Part shown: piece by piece, positions 24,934-35,589 of the stretch
Layout: every line of letters begins with the position of its first letter
Position numbering within the stretch: position 1 is the stretch's first letter
NCBI GenBank assembly: GCA_030390025.1
Contig: CM059431.1
Coordinates: 108,378,001 to 108,442,000 of the forward strand
Direction of reading: 5' to 3'
Length of the DNA stretch: 64,000 nt
Origin: Squalus acanthias
Taxonomy: Eukaryota
Notes under the pieces: model-generated
Databases searched by the model: none
What the model was told of the DNA's origin: nothing
What the model saw: the letters and a program-made list of their open reading frames with translations, nothing else
Program-made: the position numbers and the translations under genes

Positions 24934-25340
24934 AACAACAACTTGTATTTATATAGCGCCTTTAACGTAGTAAAACGTCCCAAGGCGCTTCACAGGAGCG
25001 TTATCAAACAAAATTTGACACCGAGCCATATAAGGAGATATTAGGGCTGCTTGGTCAAAGAGCTAGGCTTTAAGAAGCGTCTTAACGGAGGATAGAGAGG
25101 AGGAGCAGTTTAGGGAGGGAATTCCAGAACTTAAGGCCTTGCAGTTGAAGGCACGGCCACCAATGGTGGAGCAATTAAAATCGGGGATGCTCAAGAGAGC
25201 AGAATTAGAGGAGCGCAGATATCTTGGGGGGTTGTGGGGCTGGAGGAGATTACAGAGATAGGGAGGGGCGAGGCCATGGAGGTGTTTGAAAACAAGGATG
25301 AGAATTCTAAAATTGAGGTGTTGCTTAACCGCGAGTCAAT
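24934..25340 (-). mobile_element. L2-type LINE 3' end
   Basis: (CAA)n tail, homologous to 39640-40219. Confidence 0.8.
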
Positions 25341-26354: not shown

Positions 26355-26699
26355 TGTAAGGGTCACGGACTGGTGCGAGGTGAGGCTTTCGTTGCCTATA
26401 CTATTGCTTGCTCTGGTCTCCGGCCAGACTTTTGCAATAAACACCTGTGAGTGGTTCGACCCACTCGCCCTTACGGTTCTGACACCTGGACTTAGATGCA
26501 AGGAGCAGTAATGCAGAGAAAAGACTCAAATAGACCTGGTTGAATAGCACGAAATGAATGTCTTTATTGCATGGCGTCTAAAATCATGAAATACATGTCA
26601 TAGGCGCAGATCAAAGAGAGTACCAGTATACACACGTTCATAAAACTTGGTCTATGGAAATGGGGAACACACGACACATCGAAAAATGGGGAACACATT
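26355..26699 (-). repeat. 3' LTR (only distal R-U5 matches the 5' LTR)
   Basis: Matches 31566-31910 with about 10 substitutions by eye. Minus-strand AATAAA at ~26563-26568. Confidence 0.9.
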
Positions 26700-26990
26700 C
26701 TATGGCCCCCACGACACATGTAGTCCTCATTTCCCAGAAAAATCACACTGTGTTTATCTTGGACGATCATAGGCAGCATTGCCTTTAACTTACACTGCGT
26801 ATTCGCCTTCCAGGTGCAAGAGGCCGATGCCGCTTGCACTACCTGTACACGCATGTTTTATTATAAAAGAAAAACAATTAAACTGACTGTTTTAAAAATA
26901 CAACAGTTCCAAACTTAGTCACAAATGCTTATAACTACAACAATTGCAAAGCACACACGGTAAAATGGGGGGGGGCGTTATCCTGGCAGC

Positions 26991-28385
26991 TTACGCGGTA
27001 CTTTCCTCGTTCACGCGCACGTAACATTCTCTCCACTCCCCTGTGTTCTCCTGCCTCGTGAGGCGTTTGCCCCTTTTGCAGTGCACGAACAACAGGTACA
27101 CTACAATTGCAACTTGACATACTACCAAAATGTGGGAGGCTATCCTGATCCATGACGGGACCTCAATATTAGTGAACAGATCCCACCACGGTGGGGTTAC
27201 TATGTCCAATATCTCTGCCCCTATCTCTACGGTCTTCTGTTCCAGGGTGTAAAAATGTTTCTGTGATACCATGACGGCTTTTAAAATCTTGGTGAGGTGT
27301 TCAGGGAGTGGGGGAATGATGTACCCGAAATGTGCGACGAATCGCTGCAAGTCTGTGAAATTCTCTTTATTAAAAGCAGTGAACACATCGTTCACAGCAC
27401 CCCTTCTTTGTCTCCCCACCTGACCCAAAACTTCGTGTGGTGTGGTGTATAGGCTTGTTTTGTCAACCTCTGCAAAATCAAACTCATAAAACTGCCTGAA
27501 CATGTTTGTTAACAGGACCTGGTACAATTTTTCCGTTTCTTTGGGGCACCATTCTAGCAAATGCACCTCAGTGAGATTTAGAATCACCGAGGCCACCGCG
27601 TAATGTAGCCCCTGATACAGTATCTGATCTGTTGGTACCAGACCATTCCCGGGCCCCTTAGTGGTTTTAGAGCACCCTTCCTTCTGAGCCAATGCTACCG
27701 GAATCGTGGGCGGGGGCTTGCGTGGGCGCGTGATGAGTTCAGTGGCGTTTACCGGGATCGGGGAGAATGGGGCTCCGCACCCCCGGGTGCTGACGTCCCA
27801 CCTCATCCCTTTCCCGGCATCCTGCCACTGTTGTAGGAAAACTATGGATATACCCTTGGGGCAAACGTACGTCGATCCCCACATACACACATATATTCCC
27901 TCATCCGGTTCCCACCATTTGTCCCAACAGACTCTCACTTGTCCGTTAGTCCCCGTAATTGTCCGATGGGTATTGTTATCCAATTGCTCCCACTCGACCG
28001 AGGAATTTCTCATAGTCTTGCTTAACTTCCGTAACCACCACCATCGGCCCAATGGGACGTTCCCATTGCACACCAAACAAATCCTTTTGCCGATGGTGAC
28101 GCTGATTCTGGGTGCAACGATCCTCACCCTGGGACACAGTAAAGAAGTCTCTTTGTACGCAAACCTGGACGCGCTGGAGTATTCCGTCGAATTCGTTCCC
28201 AGCCATCCCGGCCACCTTCCCTTGTGGAAATAAGTGGCGGTTTCCTCAGCCTTTCGCTCCCCGGTCCCATCCGTCGCGATGGGGGCCATGTCCCCGGAGC
28301 AACCGAACACAACGACATCCTTGGTGAGGCCCCGATAGGCCAATCCATATCCGATCGTTGCGAGCACCACCAGAATCCTTTCCAT
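26991..28385 (-). CDS. env: Env-like glycoprotein, 464 aa (signal peptide, Ig-like domain, F2-like segment, RQRR furin site, TM)
   Basis: Uninterrupted ORF with hydrophobic N-terminus, C106..W117..DEGIYVC167, six N-X-S/T sequons, RQRR|GAV at aa 325-331 and a TM segment at aa ~413-435. Splice-acceptor-like TTTTATCTGATCACAG just upstream (AG at 28399-28398). Confidence 0.8.
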   Translation of the reverse strand: MERILVVLATIGYGLAYRGLTKDVVVFGCSGDMAPIATDGTGERKAEETATYFHKGRWPGWLGTNSTEYSSASRFAYKETSLLCPRVRIVAPRISVTIGKRICLVCNGNVPLGRWWWLRKLSKTMRNSSVEWEQLDNNTHRTITGTNGQVRVCWDKWWEPDEGIYVCMWGSTYVCPKGISIVFLQQWQDAGKGMRWDVSTRGCGAPFSPIPVNATELITRPRKPPPTIPVALAQKEGCSKTTKGPGNGLVPTDQILYQGLHYAVASVILNLTEVHLLEWCPKETEKLYQVLLTNMFRQFYEFDFAEVDKTSLYTTPHEVLGQVGRQRRGAVNDVFTAFNKENFTDLQRFVAHFGYIIPPLPEHLTKILKAVMVSQKHFYTLEQKTVEIGAEILDIVTPPWWDLFTNIEVPSWIRIASHILVVCQVAIVVYLLFVHCKRGKRLTRQENTGEWRECYVRVNEESTA

Positions 28386-28657
28386 ATCTCCTGGTTCCTG
28401 TGATCAGATAAAATGATGTAGCCAGCCTCCCAAGAGTCTCTGGCTTTTGTGAAAGGTGAGCGGGTCCCTTGACCTCGTCTCACGTACAAGACATGCATAC
28501 TGGATAGACCTTAACTGTTCCTATCACTAACTCCCATCATTTTACCATTTACCTATGAAATTAAACTACAATCTTAACCTGATATTAAAACACTATAAAC
28601 TTAAACTTATCCTCCTAAAATTACTGTACAGCGCCGCCCGTTCCCAGGGCGGCCTAG

Positions 28658-29767
28658 CTAAATTCTGAGAAGGCTGCCGCGAGCTGTTCCCCGTGGCGGG
28701 GGGGCACTGACCCTTGTCTTTGATCCGCCGCAGCCTGTCGCTGCCGATCGGGGACTGGGACCTCCCTGGGCTGCCTTGGACTTACGCCTGGGGGTGTACG
28801 AGGGATCTGGCCACAACTTCCTGGGCTGGGGTGTCCGACTCGACCTGCGGAGGGCCACCTTGGGCAAGGCCTCCAGGGCCGACGGACCGGGGACCGGGAC
28901 TTCCACCGTCACAGCCTGTGGTCCCACCACAGCCGCCGGCTCTGTCTCCCCTGGCTTCGCCCCCCTGGGCTCGGGATCTGCGGTTTCCGACTCCACCCTA
29001 CTTGTTTCTACAGTAGGTGAATCTCCACCCGTAATCCCTACCTCCCTTATGCTCGGGTCGAGGGCGGAACCTCCGTCCTCCGACCCCACCACCTCTCCGA
29101 CCGGGTCACAAACTTGGTCGAGCCCTCCGGGCTCTTCCTCATCCGTATCCCAAGAAAAAGAAGAGACCCTCCACTTTTGCAGCATATCTTCTCCCCTCAC
29201 ACAGGCTGCTTTACCGGCCTGCGTGACCTGCGGTCCTATTCGGGGCTGAGAGTCCCCACTCGCAGGTCTGGCCCCTCCCCTAAGACAGGCCACCGCCCCT
29301 GCTTGTGCATTCTGTGTAATCTCGCCTGCTGGAGGCTGAAGATTTCTATTCTGTCTTAGTTTGGGCAACTCTGCTACCATGGCTTGCAACTGCGGGGTGG
29401 TGAATTCCCCCGGGGTTGTTGAGCAAACCATCCCTCTGGCTTTGGATAGGGCTTGGGTCAGACCTTTTATCCTTTCCTCACAGGGCCCATGGTTTAAAAC
29501 CTCATACTCCCTACTCCTGGCTACCCTGTAGGCTGCCTTTATGTCTCTAAGCTGCCCTTCTAGCCCGTCTGCTTTCCCCATTAAGCGGGCGTTCTCCTCC
29601 CGTAAGGCCTGCTCTCTAAGCTGCCCTTCTAGCCCGTCTACTTTCCCCATTAAGCGGGCGTTCTCCTCCCGTAAGGCCTGCTCATTTAACCTGGCCTCCT
29701 TACAGGAGGTCTCTTCCTGTGCGTGTCTTTCAAGGGGACACAGGTAGGCAGGCTGCGCCGGTTCCAG
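28658..29767 (-). CDS. Gag-paralogous ORF in the pol position (coiled coil plus acidic/basic low-complexity tail), in frame behind the gag stop
   Basis: Frame is open from the codon after TGA (29770-29768) to 28658, first ATG at 29650. LRDIKAAYRVA...NHGPCEERIKGLTQALSKARGMVC aligns with Gag LRGVRAAYKMA...DHSVCQREIENLREALNKANGLVC. Confidence 0.7.
   Translation of the reverse strand: MEPAQPAYLCPLERHAQEETSCKEARLNEQALREENARLMGKVDGLEGQLREQALREENARLMGKADGLEGQLRDIKAAYRVARSREYEVLNHGPCEERIKGLTQALSKARGMVCSTTPGEFTTPQLQAMVAELPKLRQNRNLQPPAGEITQNAQAGAVACLRGGARPASGDSQPRIGPQVTQAGKAACVRGEDMLQKWRVSSFSWDTDEEEPGGLDQVCDPVGEVVGSEDGGSALDPSIREVGITGGDSPTVETSRVESETADPEPRGAKPGETEPAAVVGPQAVTVEVPVPGPSALEALPKVALRRSSRTPQPRKLWPDPSYTPRRKSKAAQGGPSPRSAATGCGGSKTRVSAPPPRGTARGSLLRI
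29544..29683 (-). repeat. 69-bp in-frame tandem duplication
   Basis: EQALREENARLMGK(V/A)DGLEGQLR twice, one nucleotide mismatch. Confidence 0.9.
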
Positions 29768-31562
29768 TCAGAAGTCTGGGTTATATGGGGCTGTTGCTCC
29801 CTTCCCGTGTGAGGTCATAAGAGACCGCATGGCTCCTAACATCGACTTGATCGCATCGGGATGGATAGGCACACCAGCTCCTCTCTCAGAGACAGGCGTT
29901 TGGGCTCGGACTGCGGGAGTTTTCTCCTTGGAATCCTTCCAGGGATTCCTACAGTTTTTGCGCCAGTGACCTGCCTTCCCGCACCCGTAACAAACACTAC
30001 TGGTTTGTGGGGCACGATTTCCCTCCTGATGCCACTCTTCTGAGCCGGAGCTGCGGGCTTTGCTTCATGCACTTTTCCCTTAAGGGGACGCGCTCCCGTG
30101 CTTCTAGTGTTCCTATACCCTATGGTGAGGTGACTCAGGACCGACTCCTCCGTTGTATCGGGGTTGGTGGGATCAAACCACGCCCTGGTCTGCTCCCTGA
30201 CAGGTGGCAAGCTGTTGGCCACTATGCACCTGAGCCAATGAGCTTTCCCGGCACCGTCCAGGCGGTGGCGCGCTGGTGTACTCAGGCAGCTACGCTGATA
30301 TACTGGCCACAGCCTTTCGGCGAAAACCCGTGGGGGTTCTCCCTCCATCTGCACTGTCTGACCCAGTCTAACGAACGGACCTTCGTCATCCGCCCCTAAC
30401 ACTTCCAGGACCTCGTCCCGTAAATCCTCATAGCCCTTAACTCCCCTCTTGCTCTCGTCGGAGAGACACTGAAGGATTGAGCTATCCAAAGAGAACAGCA
30501 ACATTTTGGTCTTTTCCTCGTCGTCGCAGCCATTAATCGCTGCGGTCTGTTCTACTTCTCTAAAATGCACGGAAGGGTCTCCTGACTCGGACAGCTTCCG
30601 GACATGGCTGATCATTGCCCTCAGCTGTTGTGAGCTGTGGGGCACTACAATTTGGTTTAAGAGGGTCCCGTCTTCCCCATTTTCCCCAGGGCCTCGCTTC
30701 TGTTCTCGGACCGTCACATCGGTGCCGGTCTCGACACTACCTCCGGGGATTGTTCTACCTTGGGAACCTCAATCTCTATTTCCACCGCTTCCTCCCTCAC
30801 CCAGGTTTCCGTATAGCTGGGTGGCGCTGAGGGCTTGGTGGTTGGTACCACACCTGCTTTTCTTGGTAGGGATTTTGGGAATTCCCTACCTACCTGTGGC
30901 TGGCTCGCTGACGGGCTGATGAGACACACCAAGCCATTTGCCTTATTCAGGGCCTCTCTCAGGTTCTCTATCTCCCTCTGGCAAACACTGTGGTCGGCTC
31001 TCTCAGACCTATCCTCGAGAGCCATCTTGTATGCCGCCCTAACTCCCCTCAGACTTTCTTCCTGGGCCTTTATCTGGTTAGCTAGGCGGATACACCGTTC
31101 TTTAATCTTTCCCTCACTCAATTTAGCTTCCGTGACCTGACATTCTAAGTAATCGATCCTAGCCTCGTGGTGGTTGGCTACTATTTGGCGTTCCTGATGC
31201 AACGCATTCAGTGATGCAATCAGTTTCTGTCCTCCCGTAACCTTTTCCTCCATCTCTGTTTCTAACTCTCTGATCTGAGCTGCCTGTGCTGCAATGACCT
31301 GGTCCGAAAGTTGGACTTGCTTTTTGTAGCACATCAGCCAGACCGCTTTCTCTACTGATTTCTTATATTCTCTGCTACCTGTCCACCTGATGGCTGCGTC
31401 TAGCGGACGCCTATCCGTCAGTAGGTCACATATCCACTGTTTGGTCAGGTTTACTTTCCTGAACACATAGTCAGCTACTTTTTCGTCCATTACATTTCGT
31501 TTATTCAAACCTGGGTCTAAGACATTACTCTCTTGCTGCCAGGGTCCTGCTACGGTCGCCAT
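29768..31562 (-). pseudogene. gag: gag with two -1 frameshifts (~30717 and ~30035): coiled coil, capsid, CCHC knuckle
   Basis: ATG at 31562. Capsid-like QMEGEPPRVFAERL in ORF 29836-30717. CYGCGKAGHWRKNC at 29992-29951 in a third frame ending PYNPDF-TGA. Confidence 0.85.
31544..31561 (-). promoter_or_regulatory. Primer-binding site, tRNA-Ser-like
   Basis: TGGCGACCGTAGCAGGAC lies 4 nt after the LTR end and resembles the Ser PBS pattern TGGCG.....GCAGGA. Confidence 0.6.
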
Positions 31563-31565
31563 TTC

Positions 31566-33183
31566 TGTAAGGGTCACGGACTGGTGCGAGGTGAGGCTTT
31601 CATTGCCTATACTATTGCTTGCTCTGGTCTCCGGCCAGACTTTTGCAATAAGCACCTGTGAGTGGTTCGACCCACTCGCCCTTACAGTTCTGACACCTGG
31701 ACTTAGATGCAAGGAGCAGTCATGCAGAGAAAAGACTCAAATAGACCTGGTTGAATAGCACAAAATGAATGTCTTTATTGCATGGCGTCTAAAATCATGA
31801 AATACATGTCATAGGCGCAGATCAAAGAGAGTACCAGTATACTCACATTCATAAAACTTGGTCTATGGAAATGGGGAACACACGACACATCGTAAAAGGG
31901 GGAACATATTATACCTTAACCTTATAAACCACCCTCCCTTAATATACCTAAACTACGTCTGGATTTGTAGGATCGGGAAACATGCTCACCACTCGGCTCA
32001 CTTCGGAAATTTAAAATGAGGCTCTCAGCTCGTTTCGCTGCAGCGCCTGGCTGTCACGTGGCTGTAAGGGTTTCTGCCCCCGACTTGTTTACTCTCGCTG
32101 CCGCGAATGGGTCCACTGGAGACGGCCCCGGTAAAGTTCGTCGCGGATGGCTCAGGCTATCCGCTCAAAGAGCCGGAGGGTAAGCCAGACTCCCTGATGT
32201 TATGAAGTAGTTTGTGGATTCAAACTGGATCATGAAGTAGTTCGTAGAATTCAAAACTGGTGGACTCCGCCGTTTAACTTCGGGCGCGGTCGGGGTTTAC
32301 TGACCGTGGCAGCAAGTGGAATTTCTTCTCGTCTTTCTTCTCGTCACTCGGGCCTTGCTCGGGAACACACTGCTGTGTTGCCCTGATTGGTCCGGACACC
32401 GTTTACCGACGATCGGGGTGGTGTACCCTACTGCCTGCCGTGTCAAGGTGGCTCGTTCCGATTGAACTCCACCCAACACTCGAATAACCGACCAGCACAG
32501 CTCTGCCAAAGGAACCAGCGCAAGAGAAAGAGCGAAGAGTCAAGAGAGCGATGGACATTTGTCCTCTGTAGTTATACTGTTTTGTCGGCCTTATCTCCCG
32601 CTCAAATCTAAATGTTATCCTTTGTATGATTTTGGCGCCCAAAACTCCCAGCATGGGGCGATTATCTTCTTAACGGGTTTTGGTATCACCTGAAACTGGC
32701 CAACTATCCGTTAATGCCTTCTCCATTGTTGGGCCAGCCAGGGCGTGTATGAATCGTCTCCTCGACTGGTTTTGGGGCCCCCCGAATACTGGCTTAATCA
32801 CCCGCCAATGTCTCTCTCATTGCTGAGCCGGGGGGGTATTTGTGTATTGATGTGTCTGGATGGGTTTTCGATGGCCCAGTTCAATGATTCTTACTGTGCG
32901 TATGAAACGATTCAAGCACTTATATCATTGCTATTGTCCAGGATGCAAACGGGTTGCATCCTGCCTTTTCAATTTGTACCAGGTATGATCTCATACTGAA
33001 TGTATATTCAACGCCATCTTGTCTGCCCACTGTGTCTCTGGAAGCTTCTGCCACGATGTGCGGCGGCCATTTTACAGGCTTCTGTACCCTTTATTATCAA
33101 GACAGCATTCCGTTCAATAAAAATGTTCAATTGAACCTGCTTCTCTCATATTATTTGAATCGCGATAATTGCGAAACTCTACA
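31566..33183 (-). repeat. 5' LTR (1618 bp)
   Basis: TGTAGAG...CCCTTACA. YY1-like motifs at ~33012-33073, TATAA at 32576-32572 followed by a pyrimidine-rich initiator-like tract, donor-like TG|GTGAGC at 31989, AATAAA at ~31774-31779. Confidence 0.8.
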
Positions 33184-34440: not shown

Positions 34441-34825
34441 AACAACAACATAGTAAAACGTCCCAAGGCGCTTCACAGGAGCGATTATCAAACAAAATTT
34501 GACACCGAGCCACATAAGGAGATATTAGGGCAGGTCACCAAAAACTTGGTCAAAGAGGTAGGTTTTCAGGAGCACCTTAAAGGAGGAGAGGAAGGTGGAG
34601 AGGTTTAGGGAGGGAATTCCAGAGCTTAGGGCCTTGGCAGCAGAAGGCACGGCCGCCAATGGTGGAACAATGAAAATTGGGGAAGCGCAAGAGGCCAGAA
34701 TTGGAGGAGTGCAGAGATCTCGAGGGTTGTAGGGCTGGAGAAGTTTACAGAGATAGGGACGGTTGAGGCCATGGAGGGATTTGAAAACAAGAATAAGAAT
34801 TTTAAAATCGAGGCATTGCCAGACC
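34441..34825 (-). mobile_element. L2-type LINE 3' end
   Basis: Homologous to 24934-25340. Confidence 0.8.
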
Positions 34826-35589
34826 TTGATTATTATGACAGGATATTACTCCTTGGCTACACCTCTTCTTGCGTGTATTATAATAAGTTGCATAATCATT
34901 TCTAGAAGTTAATTATGGCCACCTTAATGCAGTCATCCACTTCGCTCCTGTGAAAATCCAGCATTGGACCTGTGGAGACAGTCAACATCTTGAGGATAGA
35001 TAACTGAGGAGAAAGGAAGCTAATGTAGGAGGCTATGTTCCATCTGCTTGGCAGCATTGTTACAGGATGCAGTTCTGCAATGATACAAGACTGAAGGAAG
35101 AGAAACAGTAGCGGGAGGATTACTCCCTGCACTGTTGTCCCAGAGGACTGTAATATGATGTAGTGCCTGCTTTTAAATGATCTCTTGTCACTGATGCTGA
35201 AACATTTGACGGCTCACAACTGTGTTGATGTGAGATCCAGGGACCTGCTGTGAGCTACTCCATGCACACCTTGCTGGGTGCTAATTCCCCTACATTAGCT
35301 ACTGATCTGATTGAGCATGGACCATTGCACTGCTATGCGGTCTCTAAATCCCTCTGTCATAGTTTTCTGTGTTCTATCTCCAAGAACATTGAAGCCATCC
35401 ATTATGCAATAACTTGCATTTGTATAGTGCCTTTAATTTAGAGAAACATTAACTGAACTTCAATGCCTCAGCAGCCTCCGAGCAGCAGTATTCTGTACAG
35501 ATGCTCTGATTATGTCTTCTCCCTGCACTGCTAGGCTCGCCAAAGCAGTTGCCAAGTGGTCAGTGGCAAATGTGCCCCACCACAGCAAC

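Follow-up and report, generated by a model that had tools for sequence, protein, structure and literature searches.

A pol-less gag-X-env family of endogenous retroviruses in Squalus acanthias and the chimeric frame behind its gag stop codon

Retroviruses in which replication genes were replaced by foreign sequence in frame, such as the gag-onc transducing viruses and recombinant koala retrovirus, require a helper. Among endogenous retroviruses (ERVs), the intracisternal A-particle (IAP) form 1-delta-1 (I-delta-1) of the mouse is a deleted, non-autonomous provirus for which a novel fusion protein, reported to be cis-acting, has been described, and it out-multiplies its helper in new insertions (excerpts of PMC6466679). 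The ETn/MusD elements represent a non-autonomous family that carries the long terminal repeats (LTRs) of a coding-competent family and is mobilised in trans (excerpts of PMC6466679), and the D-type and C-type of the bovine ERVK[2-1-LTR] form a parasite-of-parasite pair (excerpts of PMC10924933). The window analyzed here, a stretch of 64,000 nucleotides (nt) of Squalus acanthias (assembly GCA_030390025.1, contig CM059431.1, positions 108,378,001 to 108,442,000), harbors a 5.55-kb provirus on the minus strand (26355-31906) that carries an open frame, termed X, behind its gag gene and belongs to a pol-less gag-X-env family of ERVs. X is explained, with rather better than even confidence, as the frame that took the place of pol in a non-autonomous, helper-dependent family and that would be made as a Gag-X protein. 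No description of a gag-X-env family was found in the literature searched at the level of listings and abstracts, and a term search of a 2015 paper on shark ERVs (PMC4422223) returned none of these features.

The chimeric X frame

The gag frame ends in ...APYNPDF (29788-29771), followed by TGA (29770-29768) and CTG, and without a change of frame a further 369 codons are open (29767-28661), which confirmed the starting point of a preliminary description made from the letters of the window. Alignment with pol-bearing relatives and with other Gag proteins showed X to be a three-part chimera composed of the residual protease start, part of a heterologous Gag and the tail of Pol. The features of the X region are as follows; L021 is a full-length relative, and L022 and L023 are two further copies.

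29768..29770, minus strand: in-frame gag stop TGA, then CTG-G; TGA in nearly all copies, and TGA-CTAG before protease in the relatives
28661..29767, minus strand: X frame of 369 codons, continuing the gag frame past TGA (reading of open reading frames, ORFs)
29702..29767, minus strand: X codons 1-22, what is left of the protease/pol start (aligned with six pol-bearing copies; ORFs of L021)
29277..29701, minus strand: X codons 23-163, a 141-codon insert from a heterologous Gag, with the end of a coiled coil and the TTPQLQAMV motif of the next domain (BLASTP, shuffles, HMMER)
29544..29681, minus strand: tandem duplication of 69 nt (23 codons) within the coiled coil, marking a subfamily (self-repeat; absent in 33 of 56 aligned copies)
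29355..29496, minus strand: Gag-like core of about 46 codons, LNHGPC...GMVC...TPQLQAMVAELP (138 nt, lost in frame in the short-form subfamily)
28661..29276, minus strand: X codons 164-369, the Pol tail that follows the SH3-like domain of integrase at the C-terminus, acidic and then basic (94.7% identical to the pol end of L021)
28658..28660, minus strand: TAG stop of X (ORF reading)
28662-29249, plus strand: antisense open frame of 195 codons over the X tail (also open in L021 and L022; a counterpart of 191 codons in L023)

The outer parts of X were assigned by comparison with L021, which contains gag, an in-frame stop, protease (LKPAQPVYLCPL...DTG), reverse transcriptase (RT), RNase H, integrase, the tail and env. 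Its pol frame of 1200 codons matched RVP, RVT_1, RNase_H, rve and Integrase_H2C2 in Pfam, with SH3_Tf2-1 at 979-1021, and ends in the same acidic-then-basic sequence as X from residue 164 onwards; an env of 788 codons follows. The window element is 90.7-93.6% identical to L021 in the LTR, 92.8% in gag and 93.9-94.7% in env, and positions 29276-27368 are collinear with the pol end and env start of L021 (94.7%, blastn), while the insert (29277 to ~29700) has no blastn counterpart in L021. X starts with LEPAQPAYLCPL, directly behind the same in-frame UGA that the pol-bearing relative uses between gag and pol. The pol-bearing relatives start with L(E/K)PAQPVYLCPL..., followed by the DTG motif of protease. 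Codons 1-12 of X clearly correspond to this protease start, and a weaker nucleotide homology with indels of +1 and +2 extends to about codon 22, in agreement with the proposal that the first codons are the old start of pol. The accompanying proposal of a simple in-frame deletion did not hold, as 0.43 kb from a different Gag lineage stands in the place of ~3.66 kb of pol. The acidic stretch and the Arg/Lys/Pro-rich stretch of the tail are both present as described; they belong to the C-terminus of Pol and are not Gag-derived. All joints in X preserve the original reading frames, namely, the three joints formed when the chimera arose and the internal deletion of the insert.

The kinship between the coiled coil of X and that of Gag, also noted in the preliminary description, was borne out. 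BLASTP of X with the N-terminal part of its own Gag gave 29 identities in 85 residues (E=2e-12), and in the shuffle test by which that description proposed to judge the similarity, none of 1000 shuffles of the coiled-coil segment reached the score (z=12.7 for the own Gag and z=13-25 for four other Gags). The second proposed similarity, FTTPQLQAMVAELPKL with HSSQQLRAMISHVRKL in the segment TTPQLQAMVAELPKL, is marginal against the own Gag, where 38 of 1000 shuffles reached the score, and strong against the Gag of L053, which carries TTPQLQAMV exactly (0/1000 shuffles, z=8.7). Across the five Gags tested, the best local alignment of this segment always fell on the same motif, which lies downstream of the coiled coil at a distance of ~65-135 residues, depending on the Gag. 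Two Gags of the same genome resemble the insert most, L054 (49% over 74 aa) and, by E-value, L053 (42% over 99 aa, E=1.7e-20), while the own Gag is only 33-34% identical; the Gag that donated the insert was not found beyond these best matches. The invariant columns of the insert (A..A...H..C...I..L...L...P) are common to five Gags. A HMMER scan of 1.84 billion proteins gave eight matches at E<=1e-3. Three of these are repeat-rich proteins, and the other five are Gag-like and come from shark ERVs, namely, the whale-shark gene model P0005, a hypothetical protein of a catshark, a fragment of 309 aa and two Gags (619 and 628 aa); the closest database relatives of the insert are thus from sharks. 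A word-indexed protein search with X residues 13-165 returned no protein at E<=0.01 among 810 candidates of 202-646 aa. Since L053 and L054 are closer to the insert than the own Gag and both segments are supported by the shuffles, the alignments show the insert to be a fragment of a different Gag lineage, in which an internal deletion brought the end of the coiled coil up to the start of the next domain. The Gag derivation of the coiled-coil and TPQLQ segments was accordingly upheld by BLASTP, HMMER and the shuffles alike.

P0005 consists of a Gag-like coiled-coil end followed ~35 residues on by the N-terminus of env, and its halves match separate places in the Squalus genome; it may be another deletion derivative of the same ERV clade in another species, or an artefact of the gene model. 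Contigs of two organisms match the insert as far as its joint with the tail (29269-29274), after which the similarity ends; in these contigs, either the insert stands in another context or the tail has diverged by more than 10%. Structure prediction of X as a single sequence with AlphaFold2 gave one long helix at residues 11-93, with a predicted local distance difference test (pLDDT) score >90, and a tail with pLDDT <50 that is predicted to be disordered. Complex prediction for the X helix and the Gag coiled coil gave no verdict (score 0.00).

The family, its helper and the provirus in the window

The genome searched was that of the window itself (3.7 Gb), in which the 111 candidates scored yielded 172 places with a match to X. 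Pol-bearing copies matched X only at residues 164-369, and among the matches listed, residues 23-163 were always contiguous with the residues of the pol start. Each of the 41 locus rows examined at the outset, which represent 40 distinct places, had the junction of gag, stop and X. A 30-mer specific to the joint between insert and tail, searched with <=3 mismatches, was found at 569 places in the genome, and a 30-mer of the helper-type gag-pol junction at 1,944; the reversed control gave 0 in both searches. A typical family member is organized as LTR-gag-X-env-LTR with a full env of ~789 codons, and the subfamilies are separated by large indels in X, i.e., the 69-nt duplication found in the window, a 171-nt duplication in the tail and a loss of 138 nt that defines the short form. 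For a systematic sample, every fourth of 100 listed places of the insert/tail junction was taken, which yielded 20 places. The short form, in which the 46-codon core is lost in frame, accounted for 13 of these 20 copies, which were all of the 13 newly fetched ones; the seven already known copies are long forms. The Gag-like core would on this count be absent from about two thirds of the copies. The same 138-nt skip was present in contigs of three of four sequencing runs.

The tails of the helpers nest inside the tree of X-family tails; their closest X copy is 94.9% identical, and the divergence among X copies reaches 14%. This nesting implies recombination between the two families, and recombination implies co-packaging. 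Within the element, diversity is lowest in the insert core (pi 0.014-0.020). A cis-acting element was considered as the reason for this low diversity; it is better explained by the lack of a helper homologue with which the insert could recombine, whereas the tails do recombine. On these alignments, the X family is inferred to be non-autonomous and mobilised in trans by a pol-bearing helper. Six X-family junctions lie at a fixed spacing of 6,415-6,418 nt (G000:C3:64286158-64318270) and three others ~7.77 kb apart (G000:C11:61698501-61714074); the pattern suggests either proviruses in tandem arrays or segmental duplications in tandem.

The stop codon between gag and X was retained as TGA in 52 of the 54 distinct copies checked (39/40 first loci and 13/13 further loci), and L022 and L023 have TGG in its place, by which gag is fused to X. 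The codon after the stop was CTG in 38 of 41 rows of the first sample, and in a later sample (n=13) the context was CTGG in nine copies, CTAG in three and TTGG in one. Five of six pol-bearing copies have UGA-CUAG, a sequence that gives efficient readthrough in four vertebrate genes and also occurs in alphaviruses (excerpts of PMC4132726). Three X copies (L059, L065 and L067) combine a helper-like gag end, PSNSTQ, with UGA-CUAG, as opposed to PYNPDF with UGA-CUGG, and are either older forms or helper recombinants right at the stop codon. A 6-bp hairpin located 9 nt after the stop is conserved without compensatory change, and no support for RNA structure was obtained within the insert. The readthrough stop of the preliminary description thus stood as to its position, which is that of the in-frame gag-pol stop of the relatives; its context in the window is UGA-CUGG and differs from the canonical UGA-CUAG of those relatives. 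Judged from this inherited position, readthrough into X is plausible and probably weaker than in the helper, and X is probably expressed by readthrough as Gag-X.

The remaining parts of the provirus in the window are the following.

31566..31906, minus strand: 5' LTR of 341 nt, TG...CA, containing AATAAA (direct repeat of 26355-26695 with 9 mismatches in 341)
31544..31561, minus strand: primer-binding-site-like TGG... 18-mer, 4 nt inside the 5' LTR (read from the sequence)
29771..31490, minus strand: gag, starting at the ATG of MDEKV, with an N-terminal coiled coil, PPSY and one CCHC knuckle (ORFs in three frames)
28404..28657, minus strand: non-coding spacer of 254 nt between X and env (shared indels there mostly 1-2 nt)
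26991..28385, minus strand: env-like frame of 470 codons with a signal-like N-terminus, RQRR and a C-terminal membrane span (ORF reading)
26355..26695, minus strand: 3' LTR, preceded by a G-rich polypurine-like stretch (direct repeat of the 5' LTR)

In comparison with a copy in which gag is open, the window gag has lost a single base near 30715 and another near 30040 and is therefore spread over three frames; its knuckle matched zf-CCHC (PF00098) in Pfam with 21.0 bits against a cut-off of 20.8. The window env is shortened relative to the 788-789 codons of its relatives by a private in-frame deletion of ~954 nt, with a junction at 27368-27384, where the two sides overlap by 17 nt; the deletion was seen in no other sampled copy, and the alignment of other copies ends at the junction. 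The window env gave no Pfam match. Since a pol with protease, RT, RNase H and integrase is absent from the window copy by ORFs, Pfam and blastn against L021, the copy is a defective member of the class I-like retroviral proviruses of the gag-stop-pol type. No target-site duplication was recognized as a 4-6-nt repeat in the LTR flanks (...aata / caac...), possibly as a result of decay or of recombination between proviruses.

L021 has ~1.45 kb between the end of env and its 3' LTR (L021:510-1955) that the window element lacks. Its 788-aa env-like protein (L021:2250-4616, minus strand) and the 575-aa Gag gave no Pfam match at all; the env-like protein carries RQRR and, behind this site, a heptad-like stretch, and possibly represents a type not described so far. 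Elsewhere in the window, two frames on the minus strand (25063-25335 and 34525-34845) have in common the motif ...LHGL.(P/R)PYLC.LLQP(H/Y)NP... and are probably a dispersed repeat unrelated to the provirus.

Selection on X and the competing explanations

Selection was evaluated on two sets of copies. The first comprised 40 copies taken by ranked similarity to the open X with stop-bearing rows skipped, so that it is uninformative on stops and frameshifts (L018 was dropped as a duplicate of L022). The second was enlarged to 56 copies with the systematic ones, and L058 was dropped as it lies in the same tandem array as L057. Pooled Nei-Gojobori estimates of the ratio of non-synonymous to synonymous substitution (dN/dS, omega) were 0.31 for gag (39 of the 40 copies) and 0.29 for env (31 of the 40), against 1.04-1.14 in the off frames; gag and env are under strong frame-specific purifying selection, which counts, beside the nesting of the tails, in favor of dependence on a helper. 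Within X, constraint was found in the front part. The insert had a pooled dN/dS of 0.55, with 0.93 and 0.76 in the off frames (40 copies). Between subfamilies, represented by nine short-form, three divergent and 14 of the 40 long-form copies, codons 1-90 showed omega 0.31-0.32, with 0.63-2.13 in the off frames. An allele-graph count over the 56 copies gave 31 non-synonymous and 19 synonymous changes in the same codons (omega 0.46, p=0.008 against omega=1).

The reading frame of X was also kept through its rearrangements. Eight of the nine indels common to >=2 X copies are multiples of three (69, 138, 171, 24, 15, 6, 3 and 3 nt), and the ninth is a deletion of 7 nt. The non-coding parts of these elements (LTR, leader, spacer and 3' end) were counted in 17 whole copies after L033, L035 and L044 had been dropped as rearranged; there, 4 of 38 shared indels are multiples of three (Fisher p=1.3e-5), and among private indels of gag and env, 10 of 42 are. 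Two copies whose tails are only 71-72% identical to that of the window are still open for >327 codons, and the 13 newly fetched systematic copies revealed no shared frameshift. On the other hand, 7 of the 20 systematic copies are broken in X, and stops were present in 14 of the best 70 rows of the X search; X is read as decaying after integration like the rest of the element. Since indels common to several copies preserve the frame and the gag stop has been retained, the X frame is read as having been kept during the spread of the family, with its helix part moderately constrained and its tail hardly so. The dN/dS comparison across copies suggested in the preliminary description thus had a divided outcome, with constraint in the first 90 codons and a tail that resembles the off frames. 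Taken together, the amino-acid constraint on X is weak, at an omega of about 0.46-0.7 where gag and env have 0.2-0.3.

According to the explanation favored here, the family could not copy itself; it would be copied and packaged with the protease, RT and integrase of the helper, while Gag and Env would be its own. Gag-X would arise where the helper makes Gag-Pol, from the few per cent of ribosomes that pass the UGA, and would join the particles through its Gag part, bringing along an extra coiled-coil helix and the Pol tail. The selected role of X, if any, would be a loose one, namely, to be translated through and to carry the tail, and not that of a second conserved Gag. A more specific version, which is distinctly unlikely, takes Gag-X as a selected decoy Gag-Pol of a retrovirus that is a parasite of a parasite, replacing Gag-Pol in mixed particles and biasing packaging or integration toward the defective genome. 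The pol-less genome would keep the leaky stop and thereby contribute a fixed small share of Gag with a captured helix and an integrase tail, a product that the helper protease may release at the retained protease N-terminus. Such a role would account for a frame kept through every large rearrangement. In the preliminary description, Gag-X was suggested as a possible assembly modulator or dominant-negative factor.

Several observations weigh against a protein-level role of X, and many of them are the ground of the unlikely alternative that X is scar tissue left after the replacement of pol, open since the copy is young and the region GC- and purine-rich, with no protein that matters. Whole X has a pooled dN/dS of 0.74, with 0.75 and 0.77 in the off frames, and the tail 0.84, with 0.74 and 0.77 (40 copies each); between subfamilies, omega of the tail was 0.65-0.71, with 0.67-0.92 in the off frames. 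Shared variants in X (111 non-synonymous to 58 synonymous) do not differ in this ratio from private ones (166:70, p=0.33), whereas the same split separates gag (p=1e-5) and env (p=4e-8). Stops build up in X about as fast as elsewhere (~0.8 per 1000 codons, counted over the best 70 rows of the X search, and 0.7-0.8 in gag and env), a 7-nt frameshift near codon 290 is common to two loci on different contigs, and the loss of the Gag-like core in 13 of the 20 systematic copies marks it as dispensable. Openness alone proves little, as a second sense frame is open in the tail region and the antisense frame of 195 codons lies over it. The latter was rejected as a gene (omega 0.78-0.94) and is a by-product of the purine-rich composition of the sense strand. 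The LTRs of the window copy diverge at only 9 of 341 positions, as expected of a young copy. As 40 of the 56 copies came from ranked hits to the open X, shared frameshifts are possibly under-sampled, and since the tails recombine with those of the helpers, the keeping of their frame may partly derive from selection on Pol. As to expression, the window and nine of the 13 further copies have UGA-CUGG without the full CUAG motif, while in an assay of OPRL1 all four downstream positions mattered and UGA-CUA alone gave 1.5% (excerpts of PMC4132726); RNA structure after the stop is unsupported (folding z=-0.89 and +0.30, no covariation). Scar tissue does not, however, readily explain the excess of in-frame shared indels in X over both the non-coding parts and the private indels of gag and env, nor the in-frame state of the three formation joints and of the internal deletion of the insert. 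It is further opposed by the omega of 0.31-0.46 in codons 1-90, below both off frames, and by the copies that stay open despite a tail difference of ~28%.

A frame kept for the sake of the RNA would reconcile a retained frame with weak constraint on its residues. Ribosomes that read through and travel ~1 kb past the gag stop would shield the genomic RNA from nonsense-mediated decay (NMD); as only their passage would matter, the frame would have to stay open while its residues were free to change. The readthrough element of Moloney murine leukemia virus both yields Pol and stabilises the transcript against NMD, and readthrough of low efficiency can inhibit NMD (excerpts of PMC7566565). The retention of the UGA and of the first downstream codons agrees with this explanation, but it is an inference only, ~2.9 kb of RNA would still follow X, so that the gain would be modest, and codons 1-90 show constraint at the level of residues; it is considered very unlikely. 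The idea of the preliminary description that X is a stand-alone, gag-derived accessory gene between pol and env of complete viruses, here fused to the pol start by a deletion, draws on the real paralogy with gag and on P0005, which joins a Gag-like coiled coil to the start of env. Alignment with L021 speaks against it, since pol runs straight into the tail and then env, with no match to the insert; moreover, the insert matches were contiguous with the pol start (among the matches listed) and the halves of P0005 lie at separate places, which leaves this idea barely credible. Equally remote is the transduction of a host gene fragment, e.g., of a cellular coiled-coil protein. The only Pfam match of the insert, to Rab11-FIP3 over 27 residues, remained below threshold (24.4 bits, cut-off 31.9), and retroviral Gags match far better, in two collinear segments and with the invariant columns common to five of them.

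Comparison with known systems

The X family resembles IAP 1-delta-1 in being non-autonomous with an open frame for a novel fusion protein; the IAP form needs full-length Gag and Pol, and its 1.9-kb deletion fuses gag to pol with env absent (excerpts of PMC6466679). Unlike IAP 1-delta-1, the X family has kept the gag stop, has had almost all of its pol replaced by a foreign Gag fragment and retains env under constraint. ETn is without coding capacity and the bovine D-type without functional genes in the published excerpts (PMC6466679; PMC10924933), whereas the X family keeps gag and env selected and its frame open. It is also the minority partner, with 569 junctions against 1,944 of the helper type. 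As in the Gag-Pol readthrough of gamma- and epsilon-type retroviruses, an in-frame stop separates gag from the next frame; here, that frame is not Pol, the context is mostly UGA-CUGG and a downstream pseudoknot is unsupported. The foreign piece of X differs from those of the gag-onc viruses and the koala retrovirus recombinants in being the Gag of another retrovirus and in being reached only by readthrough.

If Gag-X is made and matters, the family would be a natural defective retrovirus with its own evolved replacement of Gag-Pol; if it is unimportant, the family would still provide a clean, datable case of non-homologous recombination between retroviral lineages. It also represents an example of helper/parasite dynamics in a group whose ERV biology is barely described. 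The family is distinct from the known pairs in the selection on both gag and env, a foreign Gag in place of pol, the retained Pol tail and a frame reached only through the stop codon of the helper. The known non-autonomous ERVs of mouse and cattle lose genes or fuse gag to pol; the X family, with ~570 junction-bearing copies, retains gag and env under purifying selection and has exchanged pol for the foreign Gag piece and the Pol tail in a frame that was kept open.

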